DNA of 64,000 nucleotides. Origin: Piscinibacter sp. (GTDB lineage Bacteria > Pseudomonadota > Gammaproteobacteria > Burkholderiales > Burkholderiaceae_C). The stretch is from NCBI RefSeq assembly GCF_050175855.1, contig NZ_JBFXIO010000001.1, positions 3,471 to 67,470 on the forward strand. The letters are read 5' to 3'. The position numbers were made by a program, and so were the translations under genes. The stretch's first letter is position 1; every line of letters starts with the position of its first letter. Below, piece after piece: positions 1,869-58,139 of this stretch. Under the pieces are notes generated by a model that was not told the DNA's origin, did no database searches, and was given only the letters and a program-made list of their open reading frames with translations.

Positions 1869-1869
1869 C

Positions 1870-36163: not shown

Positions 36164-37279
36164 CTAGGCAGCCGTGCCGAAGCGGCGCATGAACTTCCGG
36201 TCGATGTGATCCTTCCATCGCCAGACCCATTGGCCGCTCCAGGACCAACTGCCCCAGGTGGCCAGCGCGTGCCGGTCGCCGGTGCTGATGAGGTAGAGCG
36301 CGCGGGCCTGGGGTGTCCACGCGTCAAGGGCCCGACCCTCGCAGAACGCGCGCAGGTTCTTCGCCAGCACCGGCCCGGCACGCACGGCGAAGACGCCCGA
36401 TTTCGGGCGCGTGTCCGAATACGCCGCAACATCACCGGCGGCAAAGATGTTCGGATGCGAGCTGCTCTGCAGTGACCGATTCACGCGGATGAACCCGCGC
36501 TCGTCGGTGGCCAGTCCACAAGCCGCTGGCCAGGCCGGCGCCGCGGCACCGGTGGAGGCAATGCACGCGTCGAATGACAGTAGTGCACCGCCCTCGAGAT
36601 GAACGCGGCCCGCTTCCAGCCGGAGCGCGCGGCTGCCGCCCTTCCAGACGATGCCACGCTGTGCCAGCAGCCGCGCGGCGTGCCGACGGGTGCCGTCAGG
36701 CGCACCCGGCAGCGGCAAGTCTTCGGAGCTCACCACCGTGATGAACAGGTGCGACCAGCCGTCGGTGGCGGCGCGCCGTTGGACGGCGAAGGCCAGTTCG
36801 ATCCCGGCCGCACCGGCACCGAGGATCACGAGGTCGAAGCGGCGGCACTGGCCGAGGATGCGATCCACCAGGCTGGGCCAGGCGGCGATGAACGCCTCGA
36901 TGGGGCGCACGGGCAGGGCGTGTTCCGCGCTGCCCGGAAGGTCTCCCAGCGCGGGCATGGGGCCGGTGTCGACGGACAGCGTGTCGAAGCGCAGCGTGCT
37001 GCCATCGGCACAACGGACTGTGTCGTCATCCAGGTCGAGGCCGAGGCCGGCGGTTTCGTGGAAGGCCACGCCGGCGCGGCCCGCCAGCGCATCGAGTCGG
37101 ATCGCGCAGGCCTCGATGGGATAGTGGCTGGCCACCCAGCCCGGCAACATGCCCGAGTAGATCTGGCGGCGGTAGGGCGTGATCAGGTGGACATCCCAGC
37201 CGATCAAGGGCTGTTCCGCCAGGTCGGCCAGCACCTTGACATGGGCGTGCCCGCCACCGAGGAGCACCAGCCGCTTCAT
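36164..37279 (-). CDS. FAD-dependent oxidoreductase resembling the N-terminal NDH-2-like domain of SelD fusions
   Basis: MKRLVLLGGGHAH, YSGMLPG, GAGAAGIE, FAAGD, KSGVFAVRAGP, WKDHIDRKFM. Confidence 0.85.
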   Translation of the reverse strand: MKRLVLLGGGHAHVKVLADLAEQPLIGWDVHLITPYRRQIYSGMLPGWVASHYPIEACAIRLDALAGRAGVAFHETAGLGLDLDDDTVRCADGSTLRFDTLSVDTGPMPALGDLPGSAEHALPVRPIEAFIAAWPSLVDRILGQCRRFDLVILGAGAAGIELAFAVQRRAATDGWSHLFITVVSSEDLPLPGAPDGTRRHAARLLAQRGIVWKGGSRALRLEAGRVHLEGGALLSFDACIASTGAAAPAWPAACGLATDERGFIRVNRSLQSSSHPNIFAAGDVAAYSDTRPKSGVFAVRAGPVLAKNLRAFCEGRALDAWTPQARALYLISTGDRHALATWGSWSWSGQWVWRWKDHIDRKFMRRFGTAA

Positions 37280-37956
37280 GTGGCCGCCGCCAGAGATGGC
37301 TCGGGTGCTGGGCGCTCATCTCGCCACGCCTGCCAGCGCGCCAGGTCTGCCGGCACATCCAGGTCCCACAAGGTCTCGAACTCACGCCAGCGGACGCCGG
37401 CCTCTTTGGCGCGTTCGCGGGTCTGGGCCATGACCGCGTCGGTGCTCCAGGTGATGCCGCGGAACAGGGCCGCCTGCGGGCGGCGCAGGCCCACCAGCAC
37501 GTAACCGCCGTCCTCGGCCGGGAAGAAGACCGCCTCGTCGCCGTCGAGCAAGGCCTGGGCAGCCTGGCGCAGGTGAGCCGGCGTCAGCGGCGGGCAGTCG
37601 GTACCCGTCAGGATCAAGGGCCCTTGTTCGCAGTGCAGGCGGAACGCGGTATGCATGCGCTCGCCCAGGTCACCGCTGGCCTGCACGAGGCAGGGCACAC
37701 CGGTGGCCTGGTGCAGCGCCCTGAAGAAGCGATGCTGCGCATGGGGCGCGCACCACAGGGTCACGGCGCCGAGCCCGGCGTCGAGCGCGGTCTGCACCGC
37801 CGAGCGCGTCAGTTGCCGCTGCAGACGCGCAGCGCCTTGTGGCCCCAGGGCTGGAATCAGCCGGGTCTTGGCCAAGCCCGGCATCGGCGCCTTGGCGAGC
37901 ACGGCCACCTGCACCTGGTGCAGGCGATTCGACGGCTCAGCGGGGTCGGTAACCAT
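37276..37956 (-). CDS. TIGR04282/DUF2064 family transferase (CofC-like; 'arsenosugar' cluster)
   Basis: LAKAPMPGLAKTRLIP, GDLGERM, GTDCP, PAEDGGYVLVG, WDLDVPADL. Confidence 0.88.
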   Translation of the reverse strand: MVTDPAEPSNRLHQVQVAVLAKAPMPGLAKTRLIPALGPQGAARLQRQLTRSAVQTALDAGLGAVTLWCAPHAQHRFFRALHQATGVPCLVQASGDLGERMHTAFRLHCEQGPLILTGTDCPPLTPAHLRQAAQALLDGDEAVFFPAEDGGYVLVGLRRPQAALFRGITWSTDAVMAQTRERAKEAGVRWREFETLWDLDVPADLARWQAWRDERPAPEPSLAAAT

Positions 37957-38626
37957 ATTGGATGGCCAGTTGCCGCGGGTCGGCGCCGAAGAAGTAGGCG
38001 GCGCGCAGGCGCCACATCAGGAAGATGGTCCTCCACACGCCATGGCGCTCCCAGCGCCGCGCCGAAGTCGTCACCCGCTCGCGCAGGCAGGCCGGCGGAC
38101 CGTGGACCTTGAGGGCGCGCGAGATCGCGATGTCTTCCATCAGCGGCAGTTCCGGAAAACCTCCGACCTGGCGGAACAGATCGTGGCGCACGAACAGCGC
38201 CTGGTCGCCGGTGGCAATGCCGGTCCAGCGCGAGCGCAGGTTCATCATTGCGGACACCACGCGAAGCAGCGGCCGCGGGCTGTCGATCCGCACGTCGAAG
38301 CGTCCCCAGAAGAACGGTCCGAGCGTGGCGCGACGCACCAGCACATCGGCGTGCTCGGGCAAGACGGAGTCGGCATGCAGGAACAGCAGCGCGTCGGCCG
38401 GGCAGGCCGCGGCGCCCGCATTCATCTGCGCCGCACGGCCGCGCGGCGCGAGCAGCGCGAGGTCGGCATGCTGCCGGGCGATCTCCAGCGTGTCGTCCTG
38501 ACTGCCTCCGTCCACGACGACAACGCGCGCGCCGCGCTGCCGATAGGTCTGCAGCGCCTGCAGGCGCGGCGCCAGTGTCGGGGCCTCGTCCAGCACCGGG
38601 ACGACGATGCACAGCGCGGGTCTCAT
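37937..38626 (-). CDS. TIGR04283 family GT2 glycosyltransferase ('arsenosugar' cluster)
   Basis: VVPVLDE, VVDGGSQD, GRAAQMNAGA, FLHADS, TGDQALF, LMEDI, TSARRW. Confidence 0.9.
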   Translation of the reverse strand: MRPALCIVVPVLDEAPTLAPRLQALQTYRQRGARVVVVDGGSQDDTLEIARQHADLALLAPRGRAAQMNAGAAACPADALLFLHADSVLPEHADVLVRRATLGPFFWGRFDVRIDSPRPLLRVVSAMMNLRSRWTGIATGDQALFVRHDLFRQVGGFPELPLMEDIAISRALKVHGPPACLRERVTTSARRWERHGVWRTIFLMWRLRAAYFFGADPRQLAIQYGYRPR

Positions 38627-39414
38627 GCGGCCGGAACCCGCGTGTCGTCGTGCCAGGCGAGTGCACGGTGGTTGAAACCCGAGGCAATGGTCGGCTTGAT
38701 CACGGCAAAGTAGGGCGAGACATCGAAGTCGCGTGGCGCGAACAGGCTGTGGTGGCGCACGTGCAGGATCTCGTCCATGCAGCCTGGGCACATCGGGTCG
38801 GTGGACGGAACGTTCTCGATAAGCGGCAGGATGGGGTAGCGCACGGACTGGAAGGCCTGGGCAATGAGGGTGGAGCAGATGGCGCGGGTCGGGTCCCCGC
38901 TGCCCAGCGACAGCATGCGGCGCCGCCAGCGCACCGGCACCGGGGGCGTCGGCAACAGGTAGCGTGCCAGATCGACGACGTTCTTCAGGTCGTACTGGTG
39001 ACCCAGGCGTGCCATCGCATGCTGGACGAGGGCATCGACCTCACTCGCGTCCAGGCCCACGGGCCGGCACACGCGGCAGTGCAGTCCGGCGTACTCGGCC
39101 ACGCTGACCAGCCGCACGCCCTCGCGCAGGTCGGCTTCGAGAAAGCAGAGTGGGCGACCGTGCGCATCCGCCCGGCCATCCGCATCGCCCACGAACAAGG
39201 CCGCGTGGGACCAGGTCGACTGGGTCAGGTACTTGATCGCCACGCTGAATCGGCTCTGGCCCTCGACGAGCAGCACATCGCCGGGCTGCAGGCAGGCCAT
39301 CAGCCGCACGGGATCCGTGGGCGCAGCCAGGCTGTGCGTGTGGTGGGTCTGGCTCAGGTAGCGGCTCAGGCGTTCGCCGAGCCAGCGGGTGATGCCGTCG
39401 AGAAGGCTTGCCAT
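38623..39414 (-). CDS. YiiX/YebB-like permuted NlpC/P60 cysteine hydrolase
   Basis: LQPGDVLLVEG, STWSHAAL, LGHQYD, ICSTLIA. Confidence 0.82.
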   Translation of the reverse strand: MASLLDGITRWLGERLSRYLSQTHHTHSLAAPTDPVRLMACLQPGDVLLVEGQSRFSVAIKYLTQSTWSHAALFVGDADGRADAHGRPLCFLEADLREGVRLVSVAEYAGLHCRVCRPVGLDASEVDALVQHAMARLGHQYDLKNVVDLARYLLPTPPVPVRWRRRMLSLGSGDPTRAICSTLIAQAFQSVRYPILPLIENVPSTDPMCPGCMDEILHVRHHSLFAPRDFDVSPYFAVIKPTIASGFNHRALAWHDDTRVPAA

Positions 39415-39439: not shown

Positions 39440-40309
39440 TCAACGGGCGTCGTTGAGCGCCCAGTCGTAGTCCAGGAAGGCCAGCTTGTAGCGGCCGGCG
39501 CGGATCTCGGCCTGCGCCTGGGGCGTTGGTCCCAGCACCTCGGCATGGCGGGCGAACAAGGTCTGCAGCGAATCGATGCCCTTGTGCCCGCGCTCGAAGT
39601 CCTTGCGGTACCAGTCGAAGATCTTCGATACCGACAGGGTCGCCGTGCCGGCATCGAAGCGGTTGCGCGACCGGTCGGACAGGAAGCGGTGCAGGGCGTC
39701 GTCGAGCTGCGCATCGAGCCGCTCCGCCACGAAGGCCTCGTTGCGCAGCATCGGACAGCCGATGGAGGCGCAGACCACCGCCACGTGGATGCGCGGGTCG
39801 TCGAAGACCCCGGGGGCGCGGATCATCTCGTGCTCCACCTCGTCGAGCGAGCGCTCTTGCCCCAGCAGGCGGAAGAACTTCTTCTTCCACGGGCTCTGCA
39901 CGAAGCTGCCCAGGTCCTTGATGGACTTCAGGTCCGGGTAGCGCGAGAGGATCAACTCGACCGTGAACGTGTTGTAGGCATTGATGAGGAAGGCCAGTTG
40001 CTGGGCGCGCGTCCACGTGCTGTAGCTCGCCGGGGCGACGGCCGACAGGCTGTCGAGGTAGGCCTTGAGGGCTGGGCGCTGCGTCTGCAGCGCGGCATAG
40101 CGCAGCGTCGACGCGTTGCCGCTCGGGGCGACCACCACATGCTGCTTGAGCAGCGCGTCCCAGGCGGCATGCCGGTGGTCGAACCCTCCGGCAGAACTCT
40201 GGGCCCAGGCCGGAATCGCCCGCACCATCAGCGCGACCGGCACGGCGCCGATCAGGACACGGCGGCGCCGGGACACGGGGTCGGTTCGAGTGAGGCAGGC
40301 AGGTGTCAT
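39440..40309 (-). CDS. DUF547 domain protein, Tat-like signal
   Basis: LAFLINAYN, SLDEVEH, DPRIHVAVVCASIGCP, SKIFDWY, YDWALN. Confidence 0.88.
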   Translation of the reverse strand: MTPACLTRTDPVSRRRRVLIGAVPVALMVRAIPAWAQSSAGGFDHRHAAWDALLKQHVVVAPSGNASTLRYAALQTQRPALKAYLDSLSAVAPASYSTWTRAQQLAFLINAYNTFTVELILSRYPDLKSIKDLGSFVQSPWKKKFFRLLGQERSLDEVEHEMIRAPGVFDDPRIHVAVVCASIGCPMLRNEAFVAERLDAQLDDALHRFLSDRSRNRFDAGTATLSVSKIFDWYRKDFERGHKGIDSLQTLFARHAEVLGPTPQAQAEIRAGRYKLAFLDYDWALNDAR

Positions 40310-41400
40310 GGCTCGGTGGGGTCGGCGCCTTCATCGGCGGACATGCCGGTGAAGCGGTAGTAGAAGGCCCCATCGATGACGGGACGCGATTGCGTGACGT
40401 GCTCGATCAGGCCGAACTGCATCAGGCGGTGCAGCAGCACCCAGGCGTCGTGGCGCTTCAGGCCTTGCACGGCCACCAGGTGGTCCACGGCTTCCGAGCC
40501 GACCCAGCAGCGCGGATAGGTCTTGCCCAGGTAGCTGCGGTCGGCGATGGGGACGCCGCGGCCCGACACCAGTGCTGTCAGTGCGTCGCCGAGGTCGATG
40601 GCGTCTGCCGCCACCGAGATGGCCAGGCGGTAGTAGAGCTTGTCGTCGAGGAAGGGATGTTCGTGCGCCACATGCACCAGCAGCCCGAGCGACATCAACG
40701 CCTGGCCCATCGCAAGCGCCTCGGGCGCCGACCGCTTGAAGTGGCGAGCCATCCAGGCCACGGCCTCGCTGCCCACGAAGCAATCCGGGTAGCGCTGCAG
40801 CCGCCAGGTCCGGTCGCCGATGTCCAGCGAGCGGCTCAGCAGATCGCCCAGCCCTTCGGCGGACAGGCCGCTGAGCGCGCGGATCGTGGCGCGCGGGGAG
40901 CTGGTGTCGCGTGCGTCGTTCATCACCCGCGCATAGCGGGCCAGCTCGGCCGGCGTCACCGGTTCGAGCGCCAGCGCGCGGGCCACGAGGTCGAGTGCGC
41001 TGCGCAGGCTGCCCTCGCAGTCCATCGGATCGAACTCGGGAATCAGGTCGGCGAAGCCCAGCTTCTGAACCCAGCGCCGATCGGCTTCACTGAGGTGCCC
41101 CATGCCCGGGCCTGGGGCCAGTCTCGTGAGAACGATGCGGCGGCGGCTTTCGCCGCGCGGCAGGGTGGCGTCCAGTTGCAGCAGGGTCGGCACCGTGGTC
41201 GAGCCGCCGCGTGAAATGTCGACGAAAGCCAGGGCATGGGGCTTGTCGGCCAGGCCGCGCAGCACCGTGTCGCGTCCCCGTCGGTCGGTCGGCAAGGGTG
41301 TCGGTGCCAGGCGCATGGCCATCAGGCCGGCCCGCAGGGCCGCACGGCCAGCGACATCGGGCAGGTCCAGCAGGACGGTGGATTCGGAGAGGCGTGCCAT
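40306..41400 (-). CDS. Protein with two C-terminal DEP domains
   Basis: DRTWRLQRYPDCFVGSEAVAWM...FLDDKLYYR and DRSYLGKTYPRCWVGSEAVDHL...DGAFYYRF. Confidence 0.8.
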   Translation of the reverse strand: MARLSESTVLLDLPDVAGRAALRAGLMAMRLAPTPLPTDRRGRDTVLRGLADKPHALAFVDISRGGSTTVPTLLQLDATLPRGESRRRIVLTRLAPGPGMGHLSEADRRWVQKLGFADLIPEFDPMDCEGSLRSALDLVARALALEPVTPAELARYARVMNDARDTSSPRATIRALSGLSAEGLGDLLSRSLDIGDRTWRLQRYPDCFVGSEAVAWMARHFKRSAPEALAMGQALMSLGLLVHVAHEHPFLDDKLYYRLAISVAADAIDLGDALTALVSGRGVPIADRSYLGKTYPRCWVGSEAVDHLVAVQGLKRHDAWVLLHRLMQFGLIEHVTQSRPVIDGAFYYRFTGMSADEGADPTEP

Positions 41401-41412: not shown

Positions 41413-43569
41413 TCAACCGCGCCGCCAGGCGTGAAAGCGCTCGACCCAGGCCAGCAGCGCCTGCGGCGCGTGTGCGCGCTTCCAGTTGCCGGCGGCGTAT
41501 TTGTTGGCCTCGGCCAGCGTCGGGTAGGTGTGGATCGTGCCGAGGATCTTGTTCAGGCCGATGCCGTGTTTCATCGCCAGCACGTACTCGGCGAGCAGAT
41601 CGCCGGCATGTTCGCCCGCGATCGTCACACCGAGGATGCGGTCCTTGCCCGGCACGGTCAGCACCTTGACGAAGCCGTGCGCCTCGCTGTCGGCGATGGC
41701 GCGGTCCAGATCGTCCAGGCCGTAGACCGTCACCTCGTACGGGATCTTCTTCTCCTTCGCCTCCAGCTCGTTCAGGCCGACCCGCGCCACCTCGGGTTCG
41801 ACAAAGGTCGCCCAGGGGATCACGCGGTAGTCGGCGCTGAACTTCTTGAGGGGGTCGAACAGCGCGTTGACGGCCGCGTACCAGGCCTGGTGCGCGGCAG
41901 TGTGGGTGAACTGGTAGGGCCCGGCCACGTCACCGGCGGCGTAGATGTTGGGGAAGTTGGTCTGCAGGTAGCCATTGACCTCGACGGTGCGCCCGGTGGT
42001 CACGCCCAGTTCCTCCAGGCCATAGCCCTTGAGGTTGGCCACACGCCCGACGGCCACGAGGATGGCATCGAAGGGAATCTGCTTCTCCTGACCGCCAGCC
42101 TCGACGACCAGCACCTTCTCGAGCCCGCCACCCTGCACCCGAAGCGCCTTGTGACCGGTCAGCACGGTGATGCCTTCGGCGCGAAAGCGGGCTGTGACCA
42201 GCTCCGACACTTCCGAGTCTTCGCGCACGAGGACGCGCGGCAGCATCTCGACCTGCGTCACGCGCGATCCCAGCCGCGCGAAGGTCTGCGTCAGTTCGCT
42301 GCCGATCGGGCCGCCACCCAGCACTACCAGGCGCCCCGGCCGCTGGCGCAGTTGCCAGACGTTGTCGGATGTGAGCAGCTCGGTCGGGCCGAGTTCAGCC
42401 ATGCCCGGAATTGGCGGCACGAAGGGCCGCGCCCCGGCCGCGATGACGATGGCGCGCGTGGTGAGGGTCTCGACACGGCCATCGCGGTGGGTAATCTCGA
42501 CCTCCCACGGCGACACGATGCGCGCCGTGCCCTGCGCCACGTCGACGCCCAGGCCGGTGTAGCGCTCGACCGAGTCGTGCGGCTCGATGTCCTTGATGAC
42601 CCGCTGCACCCGTTCCATCACTTCGCCGAAATCGAAGTCGGCGGTGGCGCCACGCATGCCGAATTCCTTCGCCCGCTGCACGTGGGAGAGGAACTTGGCA
42701 GATCGGATCAGCGCCTTGGACGGCACGCAGCCGGTGTTCAGGCAGTCGCCCCCTAGCGCGTGCTTCTCCACCAGCGTGACCTTGGCCTTGATGGCCGCCG
42801 CGATGTAGGCCGTGACCAGGCCGGCCGAGCCGCCGCCGATGACGATGAGGTTGCGGTCGAAGGACTTGGGCTTCTTGAAACGGGCGTAGATCCTTCTGGC
42901 CTTGAACATGTCGATGATCTTCTTGGCGACGAGCGGAAAGATACCCAGCAGCACCAGCGAGCCCAGCACGCCCGGCGAGACGATGCCGGACAGGGAGTCG
43001 ATGCGGGCCAGCTGCGTGCCGGCGTTGACGTAGACCAGCGTGCCGGCGAGCATGCCGAGCTGGCTGACCCAGTAGAAGGTCCAGGTGCGCAGCGTGGTCA
43101 CGCCCATCGCCAGGTTGATGACGAAGAAGGGCAGCACGGGCACCAGGCGCAGCGTGAACAGGTAGAAGCCGCCTTCCTTCGCGATGCCGGCGTTGAGGGC
43201 GGCCAGCCGGTCGCCGAAGCGCGACTGCACCCAGCTGCCGAGCAGCCAGCGTGCGGCCAGGAACGCGAGTGTGGCGCCGATCGAGGAGGCGAACGAGACG
43301 ATCAGCGTGCCCCAGCCCAGCCCGAACAGCGCGCCGGCGGCCAGCGTCATTACCGCGGCGCCGGGCAAGGACAGCGCCGCCACCGCCACGTAGCCGGTGA
43401 AGAACACCAGTCCAGCCAGCAGCGGCTGGCCCGCGCGCCAGGCCTGCAGATCGGCCTGGCTGCTCTTGATGGCGGCCAGGCTCAGGAACCGGCCGAGGTC
43501 CAGCCCGAAGAACAGCGCCAGCAGCAGCACCAGCCCCACCAGCAACCACCACCGCTTGTCCAGACGCAT
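41413..43569 (-). CDS. VTT/DedA membrane domain fused to a DLD/MerA-like flavin disulfide reductase
   Basis: LSLPGA...LFTLRLVP...GMLAGT; GGGSAG, GGDCLNTGCVPSK, HTYPTLAE. Confidence 0.9.
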   Translation of the reverse strand: MRLDKRWWLLVGLVLLLALFFGLDLGRFLSLAAIKSSQADLQAWRAGQPLLAGLVFFTGYVAVAALSLPGAAVMTLAAGALFGLGWGTLIVSFASSIGATLAFLAARWLLGSWVQSRFGDRLAALNAGIAKEGGFYLFTLRLVPVLPFFVINLAMGVTTLRTWTFYWVSQLGMLAGTLVYVNAGTQLARIDSLSGIVSPGVLGSLVLLGIFPLVAKKIIDMFKARRIYARFKKPKSFDRNLIVIGGGSAGLVTAYIAAAIKAKVTLVEKHALGGDCLNTGCVPSKALIRSAKFLSHVQRAKEFGMRGATADFDFGEVMERVQRVIKDIEPHDSVERYTGLGVDVAQGTARIVSPWEVEITHRDGRVETLTTRAIVIAAGARPFVPPIPGMAELGPTELLTSDNVWQLRQRPGRLVVLGGGPIGSELTQTFARLGSRVTQVEMLPRVLVREDSEVSELVTARFRAEGITVLTGHKALRVQGGGLEKVLVVEAGGQEKQIPFDAILVAVGRVANLKGYGLEELGVTTGRTVEVNGYLQTNFPNIYAAGDVAGPYQFTHTAAHQAWYAAVNALFDPLKKFSADYRVIPWATFVEPEVARVGLNELEAKEKKIPYEVTVYGLDDLDRAIADSEAHGFVKVLTVPGKDRILGVTIAGEHAGDLLAEYVLAMKHGIGLNKILGTIHTYPTLAEANKYAAGNWKRAHAPQALLAWVERFHAWRRG

Positions 43570-43616: not shown

Positions 43617-43645
43617 TAGACGCGCTGGCGGTACGGATCCTTACA
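43617..43645 (-). promoter_or_regulatory. ECF-type promoter TGTAAG-N17-CGTCTA
   Basis: Upstream of the VTT-reductase...HD-GYP operon; back-to-back with the site at 43656. Confidence 0.72.
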
Positions 43646-43655: not shown

Positions 43656-43684
43656 TGTAAGCAATTCACGCCGGCGTTCGTCCA
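43656..43684 (+). promoter_or_regulatory. ECF-type promoter TGTAAG-N17-CGTCCA
   Basis: 26 bp upstream of the mtnP ATG. Confidence 0.7.
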
Positions 43685-43710: not shown

Positions 43711-44595
43711 ATGAACTCGACCCCCATCCATCCGCGCATCGGCATCTTCGGCGGCAGCGGCCTGTACCGCATGGAAGGGCTGACCGACGTTCGCGAGCAG
43801 GTCCTCGACACGCCTTTCGGAGCGCCGTCCGACGCATTCCTGCTCGGCCGGTTGGGAGGCGTGGACGTGGCTTTCCTGGCGCGACATGGCCGCAGCCACG
43901 GCTTGATCCCCAGCCAGATTCCGTTCCGCGCCAACGTCTATGCGATGAAGGCGCTGGGTGTGCAATATCTGCTGTCGGTCTCGGCCGTCGGCTCGATGCG
44001 CGAGGACATCGCGCCGCTGGACATGGTGCTGGTCGACCAGTTCATCGATCTCACGCGCAAGCGCGAAGGCAGCTTCTTCGGCGATGGCGCGGTGGCGCAC
44101 GTCTCGCTGGCCGATCCGGTGTGCGCCGTCCTGCGCGACGTGCTGGCCGCTTCGTTTGCGGATACGGGGCTGGCCGATGTGCGCCTGCACACGCAGGGCA
44201 CCTACGTCTGCATCGAAGGGCCGGCGTTCTCGACGCGTGCCGAATCGCGCTGGTACCGCAGCCTGGGCGCCGCGGTGATCGGCATGACCAACATGCCCGA
44301 GGCCCGCCTGGCCCGCGAGGCCGAGATGGCCTATGCCACGCTGGCGCTGGCCACCGACTGGGACTGCTGGCACCCGCACCAGGCCTGCGTCACCGCCGAG
44401 ATGGCGATCGCCAACCTGCAGGGCAATGCACAGCGTGCGCAGCAGGTGCTGGCCCATGCGGTGCGCCGCATTGCAGCCAACTGGCCGGTGTCGGCAGCGC
44501 ACAGCGCACTGGGCGCGGCGCTGGTGACGCCGCCGGCGGCCATGGCGGCCCCGGTCCGGGAGCGGCTGCACGCCTTGATCTCGCGCTTTCTGTGA
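43711..44595 (+). CDS. mtnP: S-methyl-5'-thioadenosine phosphorylase
   Basis: IGIFGGSGLY, FLARHG, RANVYA, EGPAFSTRAES, GMTNMPEA, TDWDCW; AGGAG RBS. Confidence 0.92.
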   Translation: MNSTPIHPRIGIFGGSGLYRMEGLTDVREQVLDTPFGAPSDAFLLGRLGGVDVAFLARHGRSHGLIPSQIPFRANVYAMKALGVQYLLSVSAVGSMREDIAPLDMVLVDQFIDLTRKREGSFFGDGAVAHVSLADPVCAVLRDVLAASFADTGLADVRLHTQGTYVCIEGPAFSTRAESRWYRSLGAAVIGMTNMPEARLAREAEMAYATLALATDWDCWHPHQACVTAEMAIANLQGNAQRAQQVLAHAVRRIAANWPVSAAHSALGAALVTPPAAMAAPVRERLHALISRFL

Positions 44596-44621: not shown

Positions 44622-44650
44622 TGTAAGACCTCGACGACCTGCCTCGTCTA
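44622..44650 (+). promoter_or_regulatory. ECF-type promoter TGTAAG-N17-CGTCTA
   Basis: 79 bp upstream of the DUF2282 precursor gene. Confidence 0.72.
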
Positions 44651-44729
44651 TTCGCCACGAAGGCCGTGCTCGGCACGGCGCTTCGGCCAGTCCCACCGCT
44701 AGGTCCATCCACTGTTTCAGGAGATTCCC

Positions 44730-45029
44730 ATGACCCAAACCACCCCCAAGTTGCCCGCGATCGCCCTGGCCCTGGCGCTGGGCGCCGCGTTCACGGCCTT
44801 GCCCGCCGCCGCACAGATGGCCGACAAGGACAAGTGTTTCGGCGTCGCCTTGAAGGGCAAGAACGACTGCAAGGCTGGTGCCGGCACCACCTGCGCTGGC
44901 ACGTCCAAGGTGGATCACCAAGGCAACGCCTGGTCGCTGGTCCCGAAGGGCACCTGCGAAAACACGGTCTCCAAGACCTCGCCCACAGGCTTCGGCCAAC
45001 TTGCCGAGTTCAAGGAAAAGAAGGCCTGA
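44730..45029 (+). CDS. bufA1: DUF2282 bufferin-type RiPP precursor
   Basis: Signal peptide followed by EKC-like [30 protein letters not shown] (4 Cys). Confidence 0.9.
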
Positions 45030-49453: not shown

Positions 49454-49998
49454 GGCCTGCCCCGGATCAAGCCGGCCAGGCGCTTGAGGCCACGATGGAC
49501 ATTGACCTTGATGGCCGATTCCGACACACCCGCGCGCCGCGCTGCGTCGGCGACCGAGAGGCCCTCGAGCTTGGTGTCGACGATGGCCTGCCGCTGCGCC
49601 GCTGTCAGGCTGCCCAGAAGCTGTTCCAGGTCGTGCTGGACGCCGGCTTCTTCATGGATCGCCGGATGCAGGTCATCCGGCAGTTCGTCGAAGGACTCGA
49701 ACAGACCTTCGCTGCGCCCACGGCGCCGCCACAGATCGACCAGCTTGTGGCGCGCGATGCCATACACCCAGGCCGTCACCGGAACGCTGGTGTCGTAGGT
49801 GCCGCGCTGCAGGTGCAGCGCCAGCAGGGTTTCCTGCACGAGATCCTCCACGTCAGGGGACAGGCCGCCCATGCGGCGGGCGAAGTAGCCGCGCAGCCGG
49901 TCGGCGATCAATGCCAGGGCTCGTCGATACGCGGCTTCGTCGCCCGCATGGGCGTCCAACCAGATCGGCCGCAGTTGATCTTCGAAGTCGTTGCGCAA
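49450..49998 (-). CDS. sigF: ECF sigma factor (SigF/ECF16-type)
   Basis: GDEAAYR, VEDLVQETLLALH, WVYGIARHKLVD, KVNVHRGLKRL; ATGA-coupled to nrsF; TTG start. Confidence 0.85.
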   Translation of the reverse strand: MRNDFEDQLRPIWLDAHAGDEAAYRRALALIADRLRGYFARRMGGLSPDVEDLVQETLLALHLQRGTYDTSVPVTAWVYGIARHKLVDLWRRRGRSEGLFESFDELPDDLHPAIHEEAGVQHDLEQLLGSLTAAQRQAIVDTKLEGLSVADAARRAGVSESAIKVNVHRGLKRLAGLIRGRP

Positions 49999-50012
49999 TC
50001 GTCACCCTGTAT

Positions 50013-50038
50013 TTCGTCGGGCGCGGCGATCCGGTTAC
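50013..50038 (-). promoter_or_regulatory. SigF-type promoter GTAACC-N16-CGAA (sigF-nrsF autoregulation)
   Basis: Reverse strand reads GTAACC GGATCGCCGCGCCCGA CGAA. Confidence 0.78.
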
Positions 50039-50070
50039 ACGGACAGCCGAAAAAAAGTTCTGGCGTCGCT

Positions 50071-50096
50071 GTAACCGAAGCGCGATGTCAAACGAA
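50071..50096 (+). promoter_or_regulatory. SigF-type promoter GTAACC-N16-CGAA (trx-ccdA operon)
   Basis: GTAACC GAAGCGCGATGTCAAA CGAA. Confidence 0.78.
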
Positions 50097-52433: not shown

Positions 52434-52727
52434 TCACCGACCGGCTGGGTCGCCGCGTTCGCCGCAACGTCGTTGTGACCGCTCGAGATCGTCCAGTTGC
52501 ATGAGCAGCGATGTGCGGTCTTCGCGTGCGACCACGCGCCAGTGGCGACCGGTCAATGCGCCTTCCAGCGCCCACAGCAGGTTCAGGCTGGCGTTCGCCC
52601 CAGAAGCCTTGACTGCGAAGTAGGCGGCGACAGCTCCGAGTGCGCGCAAGTCCTGCTCGGAGTGGATGCCCACGCCGTTCAGCATGCGGACAGACGCGGG
52701 GCCGAGATTGGCGAGCGGCTTCATCAT
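52434..52727 (-). CDS. TfoX C-terminal domain protein
   Basis: LANLGPASVRML...SLNLLWALEGAL. Confidence 0.85.
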   Translation of the reverse strand: MMKPLANLGPASVRMLNGVGIHSEQDLRALGAVAAYFAVKASGANASLNLLWALEGALTGRHWRVVAREDRTSLLMQLDDLERSQRRCGERGDPAGR

Positions 52728-53917
52728 CGCGTTGCCGGCGCGCCGGTGAGGCTGCGAGCCCGCCAGAGCGGGTAGAGCCCCACCAGGCCGAGCAGCGGAC
52801 CCGGCAACAGCAGCCAGGCGATGTGCGCACCCCAGTCACTCAGTTCGCGCGTGCCGAGGTGGATCGAGACCATGGTGATGGCGAACCCGATGGCATTCTG
52901 CAGGGCCAGTGCGCTTCCCAGCACCTCTGGCGGGCAGGCTCCGGCGGACAGTGCCGAGAAGTGAGGCGAGTCCGCCACCACGGCGCCGCCCCAGACCAGC
53001 AGCAGCCCGCCTGCAGCCCACGCGTTCCAGCCGGTGCTGACGGGATAGACCATGCAGCACAGGGCCGACACCACCAACGCAGTGGCCGCCACCCGCGCAC
53101 TGCCGATGCGCTGGCTCCACCAGCCGCCGGCCATGCAGCTGACCGCGCCGATGCCGATGACGGCGAACGACAGGCCGAACTGCGCTGGTGTGCCGGTGCC
53201 GGCCAGACCGCTCAGCACGACCATGCTGGGCACCAGGGTCCACATCGCGTACAGCTCCCACATGTGCCCGAAATAGCCCAAGGCCGAGGCCCGGAACGCC
53301 GGCACCGAGAAGGCCCGCAGCACCTGACCCAGCCGCAAGGCCGGCGCATCGCGGCGGCGCTTGAAGTGAGGACCGTCGCCGAGCCACATGACCATCAGCG
53401 CGCCGGCCAGCGCCAGCGCCGACGAGACGCCGATCGTCGCCTGCCAGGAGGTGCCCAGGCCGGACAGTCGCACACCATGCGGCAGCGCGGTGCCCAAGGT
53501 GAGCATGCCCACCAGCAAGGACAGCGCCGCGCCGGCCTGTTGCGGCACCCAGCTCACCACGAGCTTCATGCCCAGTGGGTACACGCCGGCGAGGCATACC
53601 CCGACCGCGAAGCGCAAAGGCACGCCCGAGGACATGCCGTCGGCGAGCAGCGCGAACGCTCCGTTGAAGATCGCGCCCAGCGCGGCACAGAACGCGAAGA
53701 TCCGGCTCGCTGGGAAGCGGTCGGCCAGCCCGGTCAGAGCAAAGGTCAACGTGCCGAGGATGAAGCCGGCCTGCACCGCATTCGTCAAGGCGCCGATCGC
53801 CGACGGCGCGATGCCCCAGTCGCGCACCAGATCGTCGGCCGCGCTGTTGACCGAGAACCACAGCGACGTGCCGAACAGCTGGGCGACCACGATGACAGGA
53901 ACCGGCCGCCGAAGCAT
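52724..53917 (-). CDS. MFS transporter
   Basis: LFGTSLWFS, GVCLAGVYPLGMK, GHMWELYAMW, VADSPHFSA. Confidence 0.88.
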   Translation of the reverse strand: MLRRPVPVIVVAQLFGTSLWFSVNSAADDLVRDWGIAPSAIGALTNAVQAGFILGTLTFALTGLADRFPASRIFAFCAALGAIFNGAFALLADGMSSGVPLRFAVGVCLAGVYPLGMKLVVSWVPQQAGAALSLLVGMLTLGTALPHGVRLSGLGTSWQATIGVSSALALAGALMVMWLGDGPHFKRRRDAPALRLGQVLRAFSVPAFRASALGYFGHMWELYAMWTLVPSMVVLSGLAGTGTPAQFGLSFAVIGIGAVSCMAGGWWSQRIGSARVAATALVVSALCCMVYPVSTGWNAWAAGGLLLVWGGAVVADSPHFSALSAGACPPEVLGSALALQNAIGFAITMVSIHLGTRELSDWGAHIAWLLLPGPLLGLVGLYPLWRARSLTGAPATR

Positions 53918-53943: not shown

Positions 53944-54657
53944 CTATGACCGCGAGAGCACGCGTTGCCGTAGCGCGTCGAAGTTGTCTTCGATGAAGTC
54001 GTACGCCATGTTCGGATTCGGGTCGGGCGGGCCTTCGGGCCCCCACTCATCGGGCCGCCGGACGAATGCGGTGCGAAATCCGGCCTTGTGAGCGGCGTTC
54101 AGGTCGAAGTTGTGGCACGCCACCATCAGGATCTGCGAGGGCTCGAGCGCCATCCAGCGCGCGGCGGTAGCGTAGGCCTGCGCATGCGGCTTGTAGACGC
54201 CGATCATTTCGCAGGAGATCACCGCATCCCAGGTGACGCCGTTGCGGCGCGACACATCGACCACCAACGCGGTGGGCAGCATCGTGAACGACACCACCGG
54301 GAACTTCTCGCGCAGCGCCGCCTGCGCAGCTGGAAAGTCCGGCCAGGCGTCGAGCTCGTGCCAGGCGCGCCAGAGGCGATGCCGCTCGGCGTCGTTGAAG
54401 GCGCTCAGGCCATGCTGGGCCAGCACCTCGTCGAGCGTGCGGCGGTGCACGTCGTCCATGTTGAAGCCTGGATGCTCCGTATCAGCGATGTGACCGACGA
54501 TGCCCTTCATCGCGCGCCGTCGCCAGTCGTTCGCGACGGCATCCCAGTCTAGGCTGATCGCGTGAACGGCACCGACCTGCGACAGCGCGGCGACCAGCCC
54601 GCCATGCCAGTCCAGGACGGTACCGCCGGTGTCGAATGCCAGGGCACGGATGTCCAT
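53944..54657 (-). CDS. Haloacid dehalogenase type II (HAD superfamily)
   Basis: AFDTGGTVLDW, GVYKP, MVACHNFDL. Confidence 0.88.
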   Translation of the reverse strand: MDIRALAFDTGGTVLDWHGGLVAALSQVGAVHAISLDWDAVANDWRRRAMKGIVGHIADTEHPGFNMDDVHRRTLDEVLAQHGLSAFNDAERHRLWRAWHELDAWPDFPAAQAALREKFPVVSFTMLPTALVVDVSRRNGVTWDAVISCEMIGVYKPHAQAYATAARWMALEPSQILMVACHNFDLNAAHKAGFRTAFVRRPDEWGPEGPPDPNPNMAYDFIEDNFDALRQRVLSRS

Positions 54658-54708: not shown

Positions 54709-55656
54709 CTACCGGTCAGCGCCTGCAAGCGCCTGGGCGGGCGAGAACTTCGGCCCCTGGCTGATGCGTTGGAAGTAGGACTCCCAGGCCGGCGTGCCGG
54801 GCGGCCATTGCGCCAGGAACTCGCGCTGCCACCGGTCTGCATCGAAGCGCACCGGCAGCAGTGACACCCATGCGCCGGCCATGTGTGATTCGTGCAGCAC
54901 CGGGTGCGGCGAGGGCGTCGTCGCGATACGGGTGCACAAGCCGGACAGGTCGCCGCTGAAATTCGGCATGCCAGCCGCGCCGTTGTTCACGACGACGGCT
55001 TCTCGGCGCTCAGCGTGCCCCACCTGTCGCAGCGCCGGCAGACAGGTGTGCGTGCTGGCGAAGACGTCGACCTGTGCTGCTTCGAACACCGACTCTCGCC
55101 AAGCCGCCTGGGTTGGATCATCGAGTGCGTTCACGTCGAAGCGCCAGCCCGCGAGCGACTCGGCGTCGCCGTGCACGACGCCGACGCGGCATTCGCCGAC
55201 GCGGTAGCGCGCGACCATTGGCAATTGGGCGATGCGCTGCAGCAGCCCGCCATGGCGCCGTGCCGTCGCCTTGAGCGTCGCGTGGATCCGGTTCGAGCGC
55301 TGCACCACACCGGCATCCACGCTGTCGGGGTAGGCGCAGCCGCAGCCTGCGTCGTCCAGCTGCGCGTCGAGTTCGGCTTCGACATTGCCGAGGATCGCAT
55401 CGTTGGCCAGTACACGCAGGTTGATCTCCGCAAACGCCCGGTCGTCGACATTGAACCAGTTGAAGTCGCCGTTGAAGCACAGGGTGGGGGGCTGCGCCTC
55501 CGTGCGCGCCATCTGCTCGATGGCGTCGAGCGCGGGCACATTGCCGTAGAGCCCGCCGACGACATAGAGCGTCTGGGCTTCGCGCGTTTCGGCCGCGGCG
55601 ATGGCGCGCGGCCCGTAACGGTAGCGTAGCGGGCAGACCCGACCCGGCGTGCTCAT
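54709..55656 (-). CDS. Calcineurin-like metallophosphoesterase-fold protein (atypical)
   Basis: VVGGLYGN, FNGDFNWF, LGNVE, GCGCAYP, VHGD, STHTC, NNGAAG. Confidence 0.7.
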   Translation of the reverse strand: MSTPGRVCPLRYRYGPRAIAAAETREAQTLYVVGGLYGNVPALDAIEQMARTEAQPPTLCFNGDFNWFNVDDRAFAEINLRVLANDAILGNVEAELDAQLDDAGCGCAYPDSVDAGVVQRSNRIHATLKATARRHGGLLQRIAQLPMVARYRVGECRVGVVHGDAESLAGWRFDVNALDDPTQAAWRESVFEAAQVDVFASTHTCLPALRQVGHAERREAVVVNNGAAGMPNFSGDLSGLCTRIATTPSPHPVLHESHMAGAWVSLLPVRFDADRWQREFLAQWPPGTPAWESYFQRISQGPKFSPAQALAGADR

Positions 55657-57062
55657 GCCGCTGATCCAGCGCTCGCGACGCCAGTGCCGGCCCGGTAGCG
55701 CGGCAGCAGCAGCGGCAGGAAGAAGCCCGCGGTGCACAGGGCCAGCCCATAGAGGTTCGTGCCAAGCAGGATCGCGTACTTGCCGCTGCCGATGGCCCAG
55801 GCTGCCGGGATCAGGTTCACGGCTTGCAGCACGCCCAACACGATGCCGGGCCAGAAGGCCAGGTGGAAGGACAGCGGCGAGTATCCGACCCGGCCCGAGA
55901 ACAGGAAGATCGGCGCCAGGCCGATCACCATCGTGCCGCTGATGGTCGTGGCCTTGAGGATGTCGGTGCCGGCGATCATCGGCAGGTTGCCCAGCAGCGC
56001 AAAAGCCACCATCGTCAGCGAACCGATCGTCAAGGCCTTGGGCGACGGCAAGCGGCCGGCCAGCACCGGCAGGTCGCGTGCCACCAGTTTAGAGAGCGAC
56101 GTGAAGGTCGAGTCCAAGGTCGAACCGGCAGACGTGACCATCACCACGATCATTGCGAACCAGCCGGCGAGCCCCAATCCGCGCGCCACGTCCGCGGGCA
56201 CGTTGCCGCTGGCCGCGATGCCTTCGAGCCGCGCATGCACACCCACCAGGCTGAAGGCGAAGATCGCCACGAAGCCCAGCACGCCAGCGACGATGAAGGC
56301 GCGCAGCATGGCCTTCTCGCGCGTGATGAAGCCGCGGTCGGTCAGAACCGGGTCATGGAAGGGGTACGACAGGGTCTGCAGGAGTGCCACCAGCAGCAGG
56401 TCGCCACCCGCATCCAGTGCGAAGTGTCCTTGCGACAGCAGCACGCCGGGCGCGTGCGCCGGCAGCACGAAGGCCAGCACCACGCCCAGGAACAGGATGA
56501 ACACGACGGCCTGGATCACGTCGCTGAAGATCGAGCTGCGCAGGCCGCCCTTCAGGCTGTAGAACAGCACTGCCGCGGTGAACAGCAGTGCCGCTCCGAT
56601 GAAGCCGGCCGAGCCATTGGCACCGTAGTAGCCACCGACCACGGCGGTGTTGCTCCAGACCTCGTTGAACAGCCGCACCAGGATGGCCAGCGAGAACGCC
56701 AGTGCGGCGCCGCGGCCGTACTTGCCGATCAGGAAGGGCACCAGGCCGGTGGCTCCCTCGCGGGTGCGCAGGCGGTAGATCACCAGCCCCGCCACGGGGA
56801 TTGACAGCCAGTAGGCGGCGTAGGCCAGCCCGCCAACCACGCCGTAGGTGGCGCCCAGGTTGGCCGCATTGGTCACGGACTTGGCGAAGATCCAGCTGAT
56901 GAAGATGCTCAGCATCAGCGCCCACTCCGAGGCCGGTCTCCCCTGGTCATCGTGGCCGCGAAAGAAGCCGGCCTCGTCCTTCGAGCGCGGCACCACCAGG
57001 TACATCACGGCGCCGAAGACCAGCAGAAAGCCCCAGAAGAACAGTCCCTGCCATTCACTCAT
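55653..57062 (-). CDS. Sodium:solute symporter family protein
   Basis: About 13 TM segments; SWIFAKSVTNAA, GGLRSSIFSD, SAGSTLDS. Confidence 0.85.
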   Translation of the reverse strand: MSEWQGLFFWGFLLVFGAVMYLVVPRSKDEAGFFRGHDDQGRPASEWALMLSIFISWIFAKSVTNAANLGATYGVVGGLAYAAYWLSIPVAGLVIYRLRTREGATGLVPFLIGKYGRGAALAFSLAILVRLFNEVWSNTAVVGGYYGANGSAGFIGAALLFTAAVLFYSLKGGLRSSIFSDVIQAVVFILFLGVVLAFVLPAHAPGVLLSQGHFALDAGGDLLLVALLQTLSYPFHDPVLTDRGFITREKAMLRAFIVAGVLGFVAIFAFSLVGVHARLEGIAASGNVPADVARGLGLAGWFAMIVVMVTSAGSTLDSTFTSLSKLVARDLPVLAGRLPSPKALTIGSLTMVAFALLGNLPMIAGTDILKATTISGTMVIGLAPIFLFSGRVGYSPLSFHLAFWPGIVLGVLQAVNLIPAAWAIGSGKYAILLGTNLYGLALCTAGFFLPLLLPRYRAGTGVASAGSAA

Positions 57063-57086: not shown

Positions 57087-58085
57087 TCAGGCGCCGCAGC
57101 TCGGCGCAGAGGCGGTCGTGGCCTCGAGGGCGCCGCCGCAGCTGGAACCCTGGCCGGCGGTGCAGCCGAAGCAGTGGTCGGCCACACGGATGGGGCGGTC
57201 GTCCAAGGCTGCAGCCGTGATGTCGGAGATGTGCAGACGGGGCTTGCCCGCCTGCTGGATCGGCAGGCCCAGCTGCTGGTTGAAGTCGCAGTCGTACAGG
57301 TAACCCTGCCAGTCCACGCTCACGAGGCTCCGGCACATCACCTGTTCGAGGTTGTCGTCCCGGTGTGCGCTGCGCAGCAGGTCCATGTAGCTGTTGAACT
57401 GGCCCTTGGACACCAGCATCGAGCCGAATCGCTGGATCGGCATGTTGGCCAGCGTGAACAGCTGGTTGAAGACGACACCGAAGTGCGCCGCCAGATGCCG
57501 CTTGTAGTCGCGCTCCAGCGCCTCCTGCGGCGGAGGCAGGCTGGCGCCCTGCGGGTTGTAGACGAGGTTCAGCGTGAGGGCGCTGCCCGGCTGGCCGTAG
57601 CCGAGGGCGTTGAGCCGTTGCAGGCCCCGAATGCTCGCGTCGAAGGTGCCCTTGCCGCGCTGGCGGTCGACGTTGTCTTCCAGATAGCAGGGCATCGATG
57701 CCACCACCTCGACGCCATGCGCGGCCAGGAACTCCGCCAGGCCTTCCTGGCCGGGTTCCTCCAGGATGGTCAGGTTGCAGCGGTCGATGACCCGCACCCC
57801 TCGGGCCCGGGCGGCCACGACCAGGTCGCGGAAGTGGCGGTTGAGCTCAGGCGCGCCACCGGTCAGATCCAGGGTGCGCACGTCCGGGCTGCCGGCCAGG
57901 AAGGCGATCACCGCATCGATGGTGTCGCGCGACATCTCCTCGGTGCGGTTCGGGCCGGCGTTGACGTGGCAGTGTTGGCAGCTCTGGTTGCAGCGGTAGC
58001 CCAGGTTGATCTGCAGGGTGTCGACCGTGCGGCGACGCAGCGCCGGAAAGTCGGTGCGGAGGAGAAGGGGGAGGGTGGCGTGCAT
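57087..58085 (-). CDS. arsS: ArsS-like radical SAM / Cys-rich protein (DUF3641 C-terminus)
   Basis: QINLGYRCNQSCQHCHV (CxxxCxxC), DLTGGAPE, ASMPCY, YDCDFNQ, HCFGCTAGQGSSCGG. Confidence 0.9.
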   Translation of the reverse strand: MHATLPLLLRTDFPALRRRTVDTLQINLGYRCNQSCQHCHVNAGPNRTEEMSRDTIDAVIAFLAGSPDVRTLDLTGGAPELNRHFRDLVVAARARGVRVIDRCNLTILEEPGQEGLAEFLAAHGVEVVASMPCYLEDNVDRQRGKGTFDASIRGLQRLNALGYGQPGSALTLNLVYNPQGASLPPPQEALERDYKRHLAAHFGVVFNQLFTLANMPIQRFGSMLVSKGQFNSYMDLLRSAHRDDNLEQVMCRSLVSVDWQGYLYDCDFNQQLGLPIQQAGKPRLHISDITAAALDDRPIRVADHCFGCTAGQGSSCGGALEATTASAPSCGA

Positions 58086-58111
58086 GTCGATCCGTGGTGG
58101 CTTCCCCTTCC

Positions 58112-58139
58112 TAGACGGTCGCCGCGGCGATTCCTTACA
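58112..58139 (-). promoter_or_regulatory. ECF-type promoter TGTAAG-N16-CGTCTA
   Basis: 26 bp upstream of the arsS ATG. Confidence 0.68.

Follow-up and report, generated by a model that had tools for sequence, protein, structure and literature searches.

ArsS, an enzyme of the radical S-adenosylmethionine (SAM) type, is described as catalyzing the first committed step of arsenosugar synthesis. The cyanobacterial enzyme converts the trivalent dimethylarsenical DMAs(III), the only ArsS substrate shown so far, to 5'-deoxy-5'-dimethylarsinoyl-adenosine (DDMAA) (PMC13598754). In the literature that we searched, no enzymes are assigned to the steps after ArsS, i.e. the removal of adenine and the formation of the β-riboside; likewise, we found no published step by a 5'-methylthioadenosine (MTA) phosphorylase (MtnP) or a nucleosidase in arsenosugar synthesis in this literature, outside of which lie most subscription journals. 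Here, we describe an ArsS gene module from Piscinibacter sp. (Burkholderiales; GCF_050175855.1), which lies in a stretch of 64,000 nucleotides referred to as the window in the following (C1:3471–67470 of a 573-contig, 94% complete assembly of 5.0 Mb; G+C of the window ~68%). All coordinates are those of the window unless a contig or locus is given. Our reading of this region has several parts: the genome lacks the arsenite methyltransferase ArsM; the module forms one regulon, together with mtnP and a bufferin operon, under an extracytoplasmic function (ECF) sigma factor of the TIGR02943 type; and the enzymes act in the order ArsS, MtnP, TIGR04282 and TIGR04283. As a whole, we consider it evenly balanced between being right and wrong, and its parts are of different strength.

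The module consists of two minus-strand operons that are 14 kb apart, and family scans found all genes named in a first-pass annotation of this DNA in place. The first gene of operon 2 is arsS itself (57087–58085, −; TIGR04167, 464.7 bits versus a cut-off of 300). Its product has PF04055 and PF12345 among its precomputed domains, and our alignment A1 shows no variation in the CX3CX2C motif (C32, C36, C39) or in HCxGCTAGxGSSCGG near the C-terminus. Operon 1 encodes the CofC-like protein TIGR04282 (DUF2064; 37276–37956, −; 193.8 bits versus 134), the family 2 glycosyltransferase (GT2) TIGR04283 (37937–38626, −; 255.9 bits versus 182; the open reading frame (ORF) extends to 38791, with Met56 as the likely start) and TIGR03169, a pyridine-nucleotide-disulfide oxidoreductase of the 'N-terminal to SelD' type (36164–37279, −; 369.7 bits versus 310; present in 15 of 80 ArsS loci, see below). 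These scores bear out the gene content that had been listed for the two blocks, and the arsenosugar gene set of ArsS, TIGR04282 and TIGR04283 is thus complete above cut-off, divided over two operons with one promoter motif. Divergent from the first operon lies mtnP (43711–44595, +; TIGR01694, 298.1 bits versus 274.85).

To place this arrangement, we used 300 genomes from about 230 families of the same class and a set of 80 named loci retrieved with the ArsS profile. ArsS is present in 146 of the 300 genomes, that is, in about half. Where it occurs, TIGR04283 accompanies it in 143 genomes, within 3 kb in 89 of them; all three proteins co-occur in the same number of genomes (143/146) and are encoded mutually within 3 kb in 89, with the TIGR04282 gene almost always directly before or after the GT2 gene. 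The three families therefore form a tight and widespread core, as their previously noted co-occurrence had suggested. In Alphaproteobacteria, by contrast with this class, ArsS is rare (4/235 genomes).

The link of MtnP to this core is supported by three lines of comparative evidence. The first is its phyletic pattern: MtnP is found in 196 of the 300 class genomes, in 139 of the 146 with ArsS versus 57 of the 154 without it, an odds ratio of 34 that is not corrected for kinship and genome size. The nucleosidase MtnN occurs in 24 class genomes, and apart from the assembly of the window none of them has ArsS (0/23). In G149, a relative from the same family as the window genome, ArsS, TIGR04283 and MtnP are all missing, and an MtnN-like gene alone is present. 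Among Alphaproteobacteria, MtnP is encoded in three of the four genomes with ArsS, compared with a background frequency of 48%, a comparison that is underpowered with four ArsS genomes among 235.

The second line is repeated operon membership. Among the 80 ArsS loci, mtnP is the immediate neighbor of arsS in eight (Hylemonella, Caldimonas, Noviherbaspirillum, two Microbulbifer species and three metagenome-assembled genomes (MAGs)); for comparison, arsM is the neighbor in 13. In two of the four alphaproteobacterial genomes with ArsS (G333 and G404), mtnP even lies inside the ArsS operon, and in both of them between arsS and the TIGR04283 gene: the order is TIGR04282, VTT-reductase (the fusion protein described below), ArsS, MtnP and TIGR04283 in G333, and, tightly packed, VTT-reductase, ArsS, DUF3179, fatty-acid hydroxylase, MtnP, TIGR04283 and TIGR04282 in G404. 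A search in the reverse direction, starting from MtnP, gave the same picture: the genes of all three homologs examined (78–86% identity, on unrelated contigs), which belong to the clade B2 described next, adjoin either the VTT-reductase-GT2-DUF2064 genes or ArsS.

The third line is phylogeny. A maximum-likelihood tree of 54 MtnP sequences resolves four groups. Clade A comprises 21 sequences of a short type (~250 residues) from this class and clade B3 15 mostly alphaproteobacterial sequences, and no member of either is linked to an ArsS cluster. All 14 cluster-linked sequences fall into the remaining two clades, both well supported and taxonomically mixed: B1 with G066, G264, G125, G333, G404, Noviherbaspirillum and G185, and B2 with the window, Roseateles, Burkholderiales MAGs, Caldimonas, Hylemonella, Microbulbifer and JA6. 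Mapped on the tree, the label 'linked' requires four changes versus 12.5 in shuffled data, and none of 500 shuffles was as low. Together, phyletic pattern, operon membership and the two dedicated clades support, at the level of comparative sequence analysis, the link between MtnP and arsS clusters whose absence the first-pass annotation had taken as counting against its proposed pathway, and they make MtnP a strong candidate for the adenine-removing step after ArsS.

The closest solved structure, PDB 4GLF (372 bits to the window MtnP; human and archaeal MTA phosphorylases (MTAPs) score ~225 bits), is, together with 4GLJ, the protein 'RsfP', an MTA phosphorylase that stems from the metagenome of an Antarctic soil; the cluster-linked clade is thus already represented by a structure. 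The only positions shared by both linked clades are H160, C167 and L289 in what is a small sample. At two of them, encoded at 44188–44211, the linked clades have His160 and Cys167 (TYVCIEGP); in clades A and B3 these residues are mostly Val and Ala. As a separate observation, the clade-B1 mtnP of G185 (L011, G185:C42:54001-74000) lies beside genes for an ArsM-like methyltransferase (185 bits, below cut-off) and a DUF547 protein in a genome that has MtnN and no ArsS. The same sub-cut-off ArsM-like type adjoins ArsS in G009, G090, G141, G148 and G229.

The two other members of the core would fit the steps after adenine removal. TIGR04282 carries the signature AKAPxPGxxKTRL, in which K30, T31, R32 and L33 are nearly invariant. 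Its AlphaFold2 (AF2) model (predicted local distance difference test score, pLDDT, of 94) has the uncharacterized protein 3CGX as the best Foldseek match, followed by 3-phosphoglycerate guanylyltransferase, FbiD/CofC, KdsB, IspD and RmlA; these named matches after 3CGX are all nucleotidyltransferases (guanylyl-, cytidylyl- and thymidylyltransferases) that act on phosphate esters or sugars. Signature and model thus point to a nucleotidyltransferase, which fits the activation of a nucleoside diphosphate (NDP) sugar that had been proposed for this CofC-like protein. MTAP-type enzymes yield α-D-ribose 1-phosphates and tolerate many 5' substituents, and GT2 is an inverting family; the β-riboside is the anomer of natural arsenosugars.

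On this basis, we propose that ArsS would attach the 5'-deoxyadenosyl group of SAM to a metalloid compound, X, a reaction shown for DMAs(III) with the cyanobacterial enzyme and here assumed by homology. Adenine would then be removed by MtnP through phosphorolysis, as gene context and the breadth of MTAP-type enzymes suggest, leaving 5-deoxy-5-X-α-D-ribose 1-phosphate; judging from its fold and signature, TIGR04282 would couple this sugar phosphate to a nucleoside monophosphate to give an NDP-sugar. Lastly, TIGR04283 would move the sugar to an acceptor, and, being an inverting GT2 enzyme presented with an α-linked NDP-sugar, it would yield a β-riboside. No mtnA, mtnB or aldolase genes were seen beside the mtnP of the window.

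The first-pass annotation had further claimed that both operons and the divergent mtnP start from the same ECF motif, and this motif does stand directly upstream of each unit. GTAAG-N15-18-CGTC occurs at seven sites in the window versus 0.51 expected (14-fold enrichment; 0/100 shuffles reach seven). In its full form, TGTAAG-N16/17-CGTC(T/C)A, it precedes the VTT-reductase gene that opens operon 1 (43619–43645, −) and, back to back with this site, mtnP (43656–43682, +), as well as arsS (58114–58139, −; TGTAAGG-N16-CGTCTA), the bufferin operon (44622–44648, +) and a gene for an unknown protein of 288 residues (34300–35166, +; motif at 34231–34257, +). A CGTAAG variant (58157–58183, +) lies upstream of an operon (58157–59910 including the motif, +) that consists of two unknown genes, u58301 (58301–58762) and u58773 (58772–59056), and those for an ECF sigma factor (59057–59701, +; TIGR02943 type, 241 bits) and an anti-sigma factor with a zf-HC2 match (~59695–59910, +; 71 residues). 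Across the 5.0-Mb assembly, TGTAAG-type sites are nearly restricted to the loci of the window and to second copies of them on contigs C60, C275 and C305, and the back-to-back pair between the VTT-reductase operon and mtnP is conserved on C60. Variants with TGTAAT precede bdhA-adc and a DUF3179/YedE-like pair. At 17330–18412 and 19630–21290 (−) of the window, these TGTAAT-N17-CGTC variants stand before the DUF3179 gene followed by the YedE-like gene, and before the 3-hydroxybutyrate dehydrogenase gene followed by the acetoacetate decarboxylase gene; the C305 copy of the latter pair has a TGTAAG site, and a DUF3179 gene is also found inside the ArsS operon of G404 (L109:10102–11073).

The same layout is found in Roseateles puraquae (L029), where mtnP, the VTT-reductase operon, arsS and the sigma operon have each retained the motif in front of them, including the divergent site pair between the latter two. 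Its mtnP, 77% identical to that of the window, is flanked by three motif copies in the arrangement seen here. Their spacers, however, bear no relation to those of the window, a sign of selection for the -35 and -10 elements.

The SigF/NrsF pair encoded between the two blocks (nrsF, 48818–49453, and sigF, 49450–49998; 48818–50096 including motifs) was also considered as the owner of the shared motif. This assignment does not stand, since the pair carries a different motif, GTAACC-N16-CGAA, at 50013–50038 (−) and 50071–50096 (+), before sigF-nrsF and before a divergent trx-dsbD-unknown operon; it occurs only there and is absent upstream of the ArsS, VTT-reductase and mtnP units. Letter for letter, this second motif is the Caulobacter σF site (PMC3511200). 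The window thus holds two separate predicted ECF regulons side by side, and the bufferin operon would belong to the one that is not controlled by SigF, unlike in Caulobacter. The TGTAAG motif precedes the operon of the TIGR02943-type sigma factor in the window, on C275 and in Roseateles puraquae. Because ECF sigma factors usually drive their own operon, this factor, with its zinc-finger anti-sigma factor of 71 residues, is most likely the owner of the motif. The anti-sigma factor is a soluble zf-HC2 protein with the sequence HLMMCTGC. An IS630 transposase gene (60144–61277) begins ~230 nt past its gene, and the insertion marks the edge of the island; a truncation of the anti-sigma gene by this element was considered and rejected, as the protein is intact and of equal length (71–72 residues) in Roseateles and on C275. 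We envisage that the sigma factor is held by this small cytoplasmic HxxxCxxC protein and would be freed under thiol-reactive or metalloid stress, its predicted regulon comprising both ArsS operons, mtnP, the bufferin operon and a few other units.

In summary, of the pathway from ArsS via MtnP and TIGR04282 to the GT2 enzyme, the comparative link of MtnP and the structural assignment of TIGR04282 as a predicted nucleotidyltransferase are supported; the assignment of the motif to SigF and the designation of mtnP as a paralog are not. The latter, by which mtnP would be an extra or dedicated copy, was rejected because it is the sole full-length MtnP gene of the genome, apart from a copy in a second, syntenic island on C60, and there is no second, housekeeping MtnP. 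The same applies to 7 of the 8 linked genomes tested, where the linked MtnP is the only full-length copy, so that one enzyme must also serve the salvage of MTA and 5'-deoxyadenosine. This is the first of several observations that speak against the proposed pathway and its regulation. In 10 families, MtnP persists where one of the genomes sampled is without ArsS, which shows that MtnP keeps its usual role too and that the phyletic signal is one-directional; genome size may also confound this signal. Conversely, MtnP was not found, at E-values of 1e-60 or 1e-20, in seven class genomes and at least three alphaproteobacteria that have ArsS. Most gammaproteobacterial genomes with ArsS have an unlinked mtnP of the short clade-A type, and mtnP lies within 3 kb of arsS in only two of the 146 class genomes (G066 and G264; order SSS, ArsS, MtnP). 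Furthermore, the NCBIfam name for TIGR04282 is glycosyltransferase, not nucleotidyltransferase. Finally, when more distant ArsS loci with a nearby ECF sigma factor were examined for TGTAAG in its exact form, Roseateles alone had it, and co-regulation by exactly this motif is therefore limited to close relatives.

Several of these points would be expected if MtnP did housekeeping only, i.e. if it kept ArsS active by clearing inhibitors of radical SAM and SAM-dependent enzymes, namely 5'-deoxyadenosine and MTA. MTAP-type enzymes do accept 5'-deoxyadenosine, as in the dihydroxyacetone phosphate (DHAP) shunt, and both the single full-length copy in the window genome and in most linked genomes and the retention of MtnP in relatives without ArsS agree with such a role. 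However, in the ArsS reaction the 5'-deoxyadenosyl radical is a substrate, which leaves 5'-deoxyadenosine merely as an abortive by-product. Nor would housekeeping account for the position of mtnP between arsS and the transferase genes in two genomes, or for the two dedicated, taxonomically mixed clades of linked enzymes. Moreover, TIGR04282 depends on a phosphate ester, a sugar 1-phosphate or one like it, for which the only suppliers would be a phosphorylase, or a nucleosidase together with a kinase. We thus regard a housekeeping role alone as unlikely.

Neither the window nor the whole assembly encodes ArsM: the best match to NF008823 scores 51.7 bits versus a cut-off of 263 in an assembly that is 94% complete, extending to the genome what had been noted for the window. 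This is the rule rather than the exception, as about two thirds of the genomes with ArsS lack ArsM; it is found above cut-off in only 46 of 146, and in 66 of 146 at E = 1e-40. Operon 2 suggests what may take its place. Downstream of arsS, it encodes an SSS-family permease (55653–57062, −; weak SSF/TIGR00813 matches), a candidate importer of the ArsS substrate, and a cysteine-rich protein of 315 residues, u54709 (54709–55656, −), a widespread 'hypothetical protein' with more than 7,600 homologs. It belongs to no Pfam family, but its AF2 model (pLDDT 90.5) has a metallophosphoesterase fold, with Foldseek matches to 1NNW, SapH and LpxH at E = 2e-10. Although the fold agrees with that of PF00149, there is no Pfam match to this family, and motif I (GGLYGN) is degenerate, followed by GNVE as motif III and THTC as motif V. 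Four cysteines are invariant, C8, C105 and C107 in the sequence GCGC at 104–107, and C205 in THTC, and the protein may bind or process a thiophilic metalloid compound.

In the ArsS loci, u54709 occurs in 20 of 80 and in none of the 13 with ArsM (p = 0.03); it tends to occur where the permease SSS does (odds ratio 15.6, p = 6e-4), and the order ArsS-SSS-u54709 recurs. In the place of SSS, other ArsS operons (L150:11525–16113, L108:12336–14779) have a PhnD-like ABC importer (172–188 bits to PhnD, below cut-off), followed in L150 by a u54709-type protein with 68% identity. Two further readings were rejected here: a 'selenate' identity of the PhnD-like importers, which reach 87–90 bits with TIGR04553 versus a cut-off of 250, and a kinship between u54709 and the product of a gene of 323 codons in the G404 operon, which is the DUF3179 protein. 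Since u54709 excludes ArsM and travels with either importer, these clusters would have an import-based entry. Methylarsonate and dimethylarsinate are analogs of phosphonates, and given that the genome lacks ArsM, X would most simply be an imported methylated arsenical. The pathway would then begin with the uptake of a reduced metalloid compound by the SSS permease and its preparation by u54709 and the two flavin disulfide reductases, TIGR03169 and the VTT-reductase, which could provide the trivalent form required by ArsS. Extending this, we put forward tentatively, as a rather doubtful idea, that ArsS, MtnP, TIGR04282 and TIGR04283 make and use an undescribed NDP-5-deoxy-5-X-ribofuranose, fed, in bacteria that lack ArsM as here, by the importer and u54709 and switched by a thiol-sensing pair of ECF sigma factor and zinc-finger anti-sigma factor; X could be a methylarsenical derived from the community, or a selenium species.

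The latter possibility was raised by the first-pass annotation, according to which X may be selenium or sulfur rather than arsenic. In that case, ArsS would act on a selenide or methylselenol to produce 5'-seleno-adenosines, and MtnP would turn these into selenoribosides. As the annotation had noted, selenoneine genes are indeed present (1–6327), encoding SenA (510 bits), EgtD and, in part, SenB, whose gene runs over the window start; near them is a 'putative selenate' ABC transporter of the TIGR04553 type (404 bits), and a genome search for selD placed SelD/SenC just outside the window on the same contig (C1:2169–3098). TIGR03169 corresponds to a domain that is fused to SelD elsewhere, some members of the ArsS family are selenoproteins, and YedE-like genes, which have the TGTAAT motif variant here, are also found in the related island L153 (see below). 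This evidence is circumstantial, and so is the missing ArsM, as its absence is the majority state among genomes with ArsS. Where ArsM is present, it is encoded in the same clusters (13/80), the sole demonstrated ArsS substrate is DMAs(III), and the PhnD-like importers of other ArsS operons would suit methylarsonate or dimethylarsinate. As the ArsM-less clusters carry importers, imported methylarsenicals fit at least as well as selenium, and we consider a module that handles selenium or sulfur improbable.

A different concern is that mtnP merely hitch-hikes in a metal-stress island that is mobile (mer, czc, bufferin, IS630), and that its phyletic correlation with ArsS reflects lineage and genome size. 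Besides the selenoneine locus with SenB, SenA, EgtD and the TIGR04553 ABC transporter, the window contains an RclR/AhpD-like region as well as cus/czc and mer genes, and the bufferin operon, the sigF-nrsF pair and the trx-dsbD operon lie between the two blocks. Most of the island is present a second time in the assembly, in syntenic order, on contigs C60, C275, C193 and C36 (70–92% amino acid identity), and fragments of a third copy lie on C166, C287 and C163 (44–70%); the binning of related strains would explain this, as would an island that is repeated or mobile. In a Rhodanobacteraceae MAG (L153), nearly the entire island recurs, with the DEP and C92 genes, the ECF sigma factor and its zf-HC2 anti-sigma factor, the bufferin operon and SigF/NrsF. 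The two to three copies in this bin and the same layout in another family thus speak for mobility, and genomes that lack both ArsS and MtnP are mostly small. Nevertheless, mtnP adjoins the ArsS genes in differing orientations and gene orders across alpha-, beta- and gammaproteobacteria, B1 and B2 are separate clades that are both cluster-linked, and the motif upstream of mtnP is kept despite a changed spacer. Hitch-hiking therefore appears quite implausible to us as the explanation. It is more improbable still that MtnP serves as an accessory arsenate reductase, by arsenolysis of nucleosides to an unstable ribose 1-arsenate that thiols easily reduce: disulfide reductases adjoin mtnP, and a purine nucleoside phosphorylase acting as an arsenate reductase with dithiols is cited in PMC12608789, but nothing in the cluster points to arsenate, and this reading would explain neither why mtnP lies between arsS and the transferases nor why TIGR04282 needs a phosphate ester.

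The proposed pathway leaves several genes of the two operons with less defined roles. Operon 1 starts with the VTT-reductase (41413–43569, −; PF09335, PF07992 and PF02852), a fusion of a VTT/DedA membrane domain with an FAD/NAD(P)H disulfide reductase (redox motif CLNTGC), which adjoins ArsS in 39 of the 80 loci; its VTT/DedA domain may handle a lipid-linked product. It is followed by genes for a protein with two DEP domains (40306–41400, −; PF00610, E = 9e-34), a DUF547 protein (39440–40309, −; PF04784, E = 1.6e-24), which is present in 11 of the 80 loci, and a Peptidase_C92-like, permuted-papain protein (38623–39414, −; PF05708, E = 8e-7; the ORF extends to 39714, with a likely start at 39414), which is kept in L153. 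The two-DEP gene is missing from the C60 copy of the island; in the Rhodanobacteraceae MAG (L153:6619–7686) it occupies the same slot, with the VTT-reductase and C92-like genes on either side. At the other end, 12 nt downstream of operon 1 and possibly its last gene, lies a gene for an HD-GYP-like response regulator (35216–36151, −; NF053512, 99 bits, below cut-off).

In operon 2, u54709 is followed by a hydrolase gene (53944–54657, −) of the haloacid dehalogenase (HAD) superfamily and, as the last gene, by one for a major facilitator superfamily (MFS) transporter (52724–53917, −; PF07690, E = 1.2e-21), a type not seen as an ArsS neighbor in the 80 other loci. The HAD protein scores as a type II haloacid dehalogenase (TIGR01428, 133.6 bits versus 125.4), and its N-terminal motif DTGGT is without the second Asp of HAD phosphatases, making a simple role as a sugar-phosphate phosphatase doubtful. 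The bufferin operon (44622–47346 including the motif, +) was delimited by family scans and encodes a BufA1-like protein (44730–45029), MbnB/DUF692 (45066–46004), DUF2063 (46001–46801) and DoxX (46798–47346); such operons adjoin ArsS in 5 of the 80 loci.

The module is very common in heterotrophic bacteria: about every second class genome sampled has ArsS, and the majority of these lack ArsM. MtnP, followed by TIGR04282 and the inverting GT2 enzyme TIGR04283, provides named candidates for a complete and chemically coherent route after ArsS. The linked form has culturable carriers in Roseateles puraquae, Caldimonas manganoxidans and Microbulbifer, the structure 4GLF comes from the same MtnP clade, and the defined motif with its sigma/anti-sigma pair could serve to switch the pathway on.

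Compared with known systems, the module is closest to the arsM-arsS pair of Synechocystis sp. PCC 6803 and the NCBIfam arsenosugar set, with which it shares, by sequence, an ArsS at the equivalog level, TIGR04282 and TIGR04283 above their cut-offs and, presumably, the adenosylation of a trivalent metalloid. Unlike these, its genome lacks ArsM, its gene set is split into two operons under predicted ECF sigma control, and it adds the SSS importer, u54709, the VTT-reductase, TIGR03169, the DUF547 and DEP proteins, and MtnP. With the MtnP/MTAP enzymes of methionine salvage and the DHAP shunt, the window MtnP has in common its family (TIGR01694), its similarity to 4GLF (372 bits) and the proposed chemistry, the phosphorolysis of a 5'-substituted adenosine; it differs in belonging to a clade that travels with ArsS clusters and in that its proposed product would go to a nucleotidyltransferase, not to an isomerase. 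TIGR04282, with a model that matches FbiD, CofC, KdsB, IspD and RmlA and a GT2 gene alongside, recalls the pairing of RmlA with a glycosyltransferase and that of CofC/FbiD with CofD, yet it is a separate family (DUF2064). Finally, the window shares with the Caulobacter σF/NrsF regulon a SigF/NrsF pair with its GTAACC-N16-CGAA motif and a bufferin operon, whereas in the window TGTAAG-N16/17-CGTC, a motif that goes with a second ECF sigma factor and its zf-HC2 anti-sigma factor, stands before the bufferin operon, mtnP and the ArsS module.

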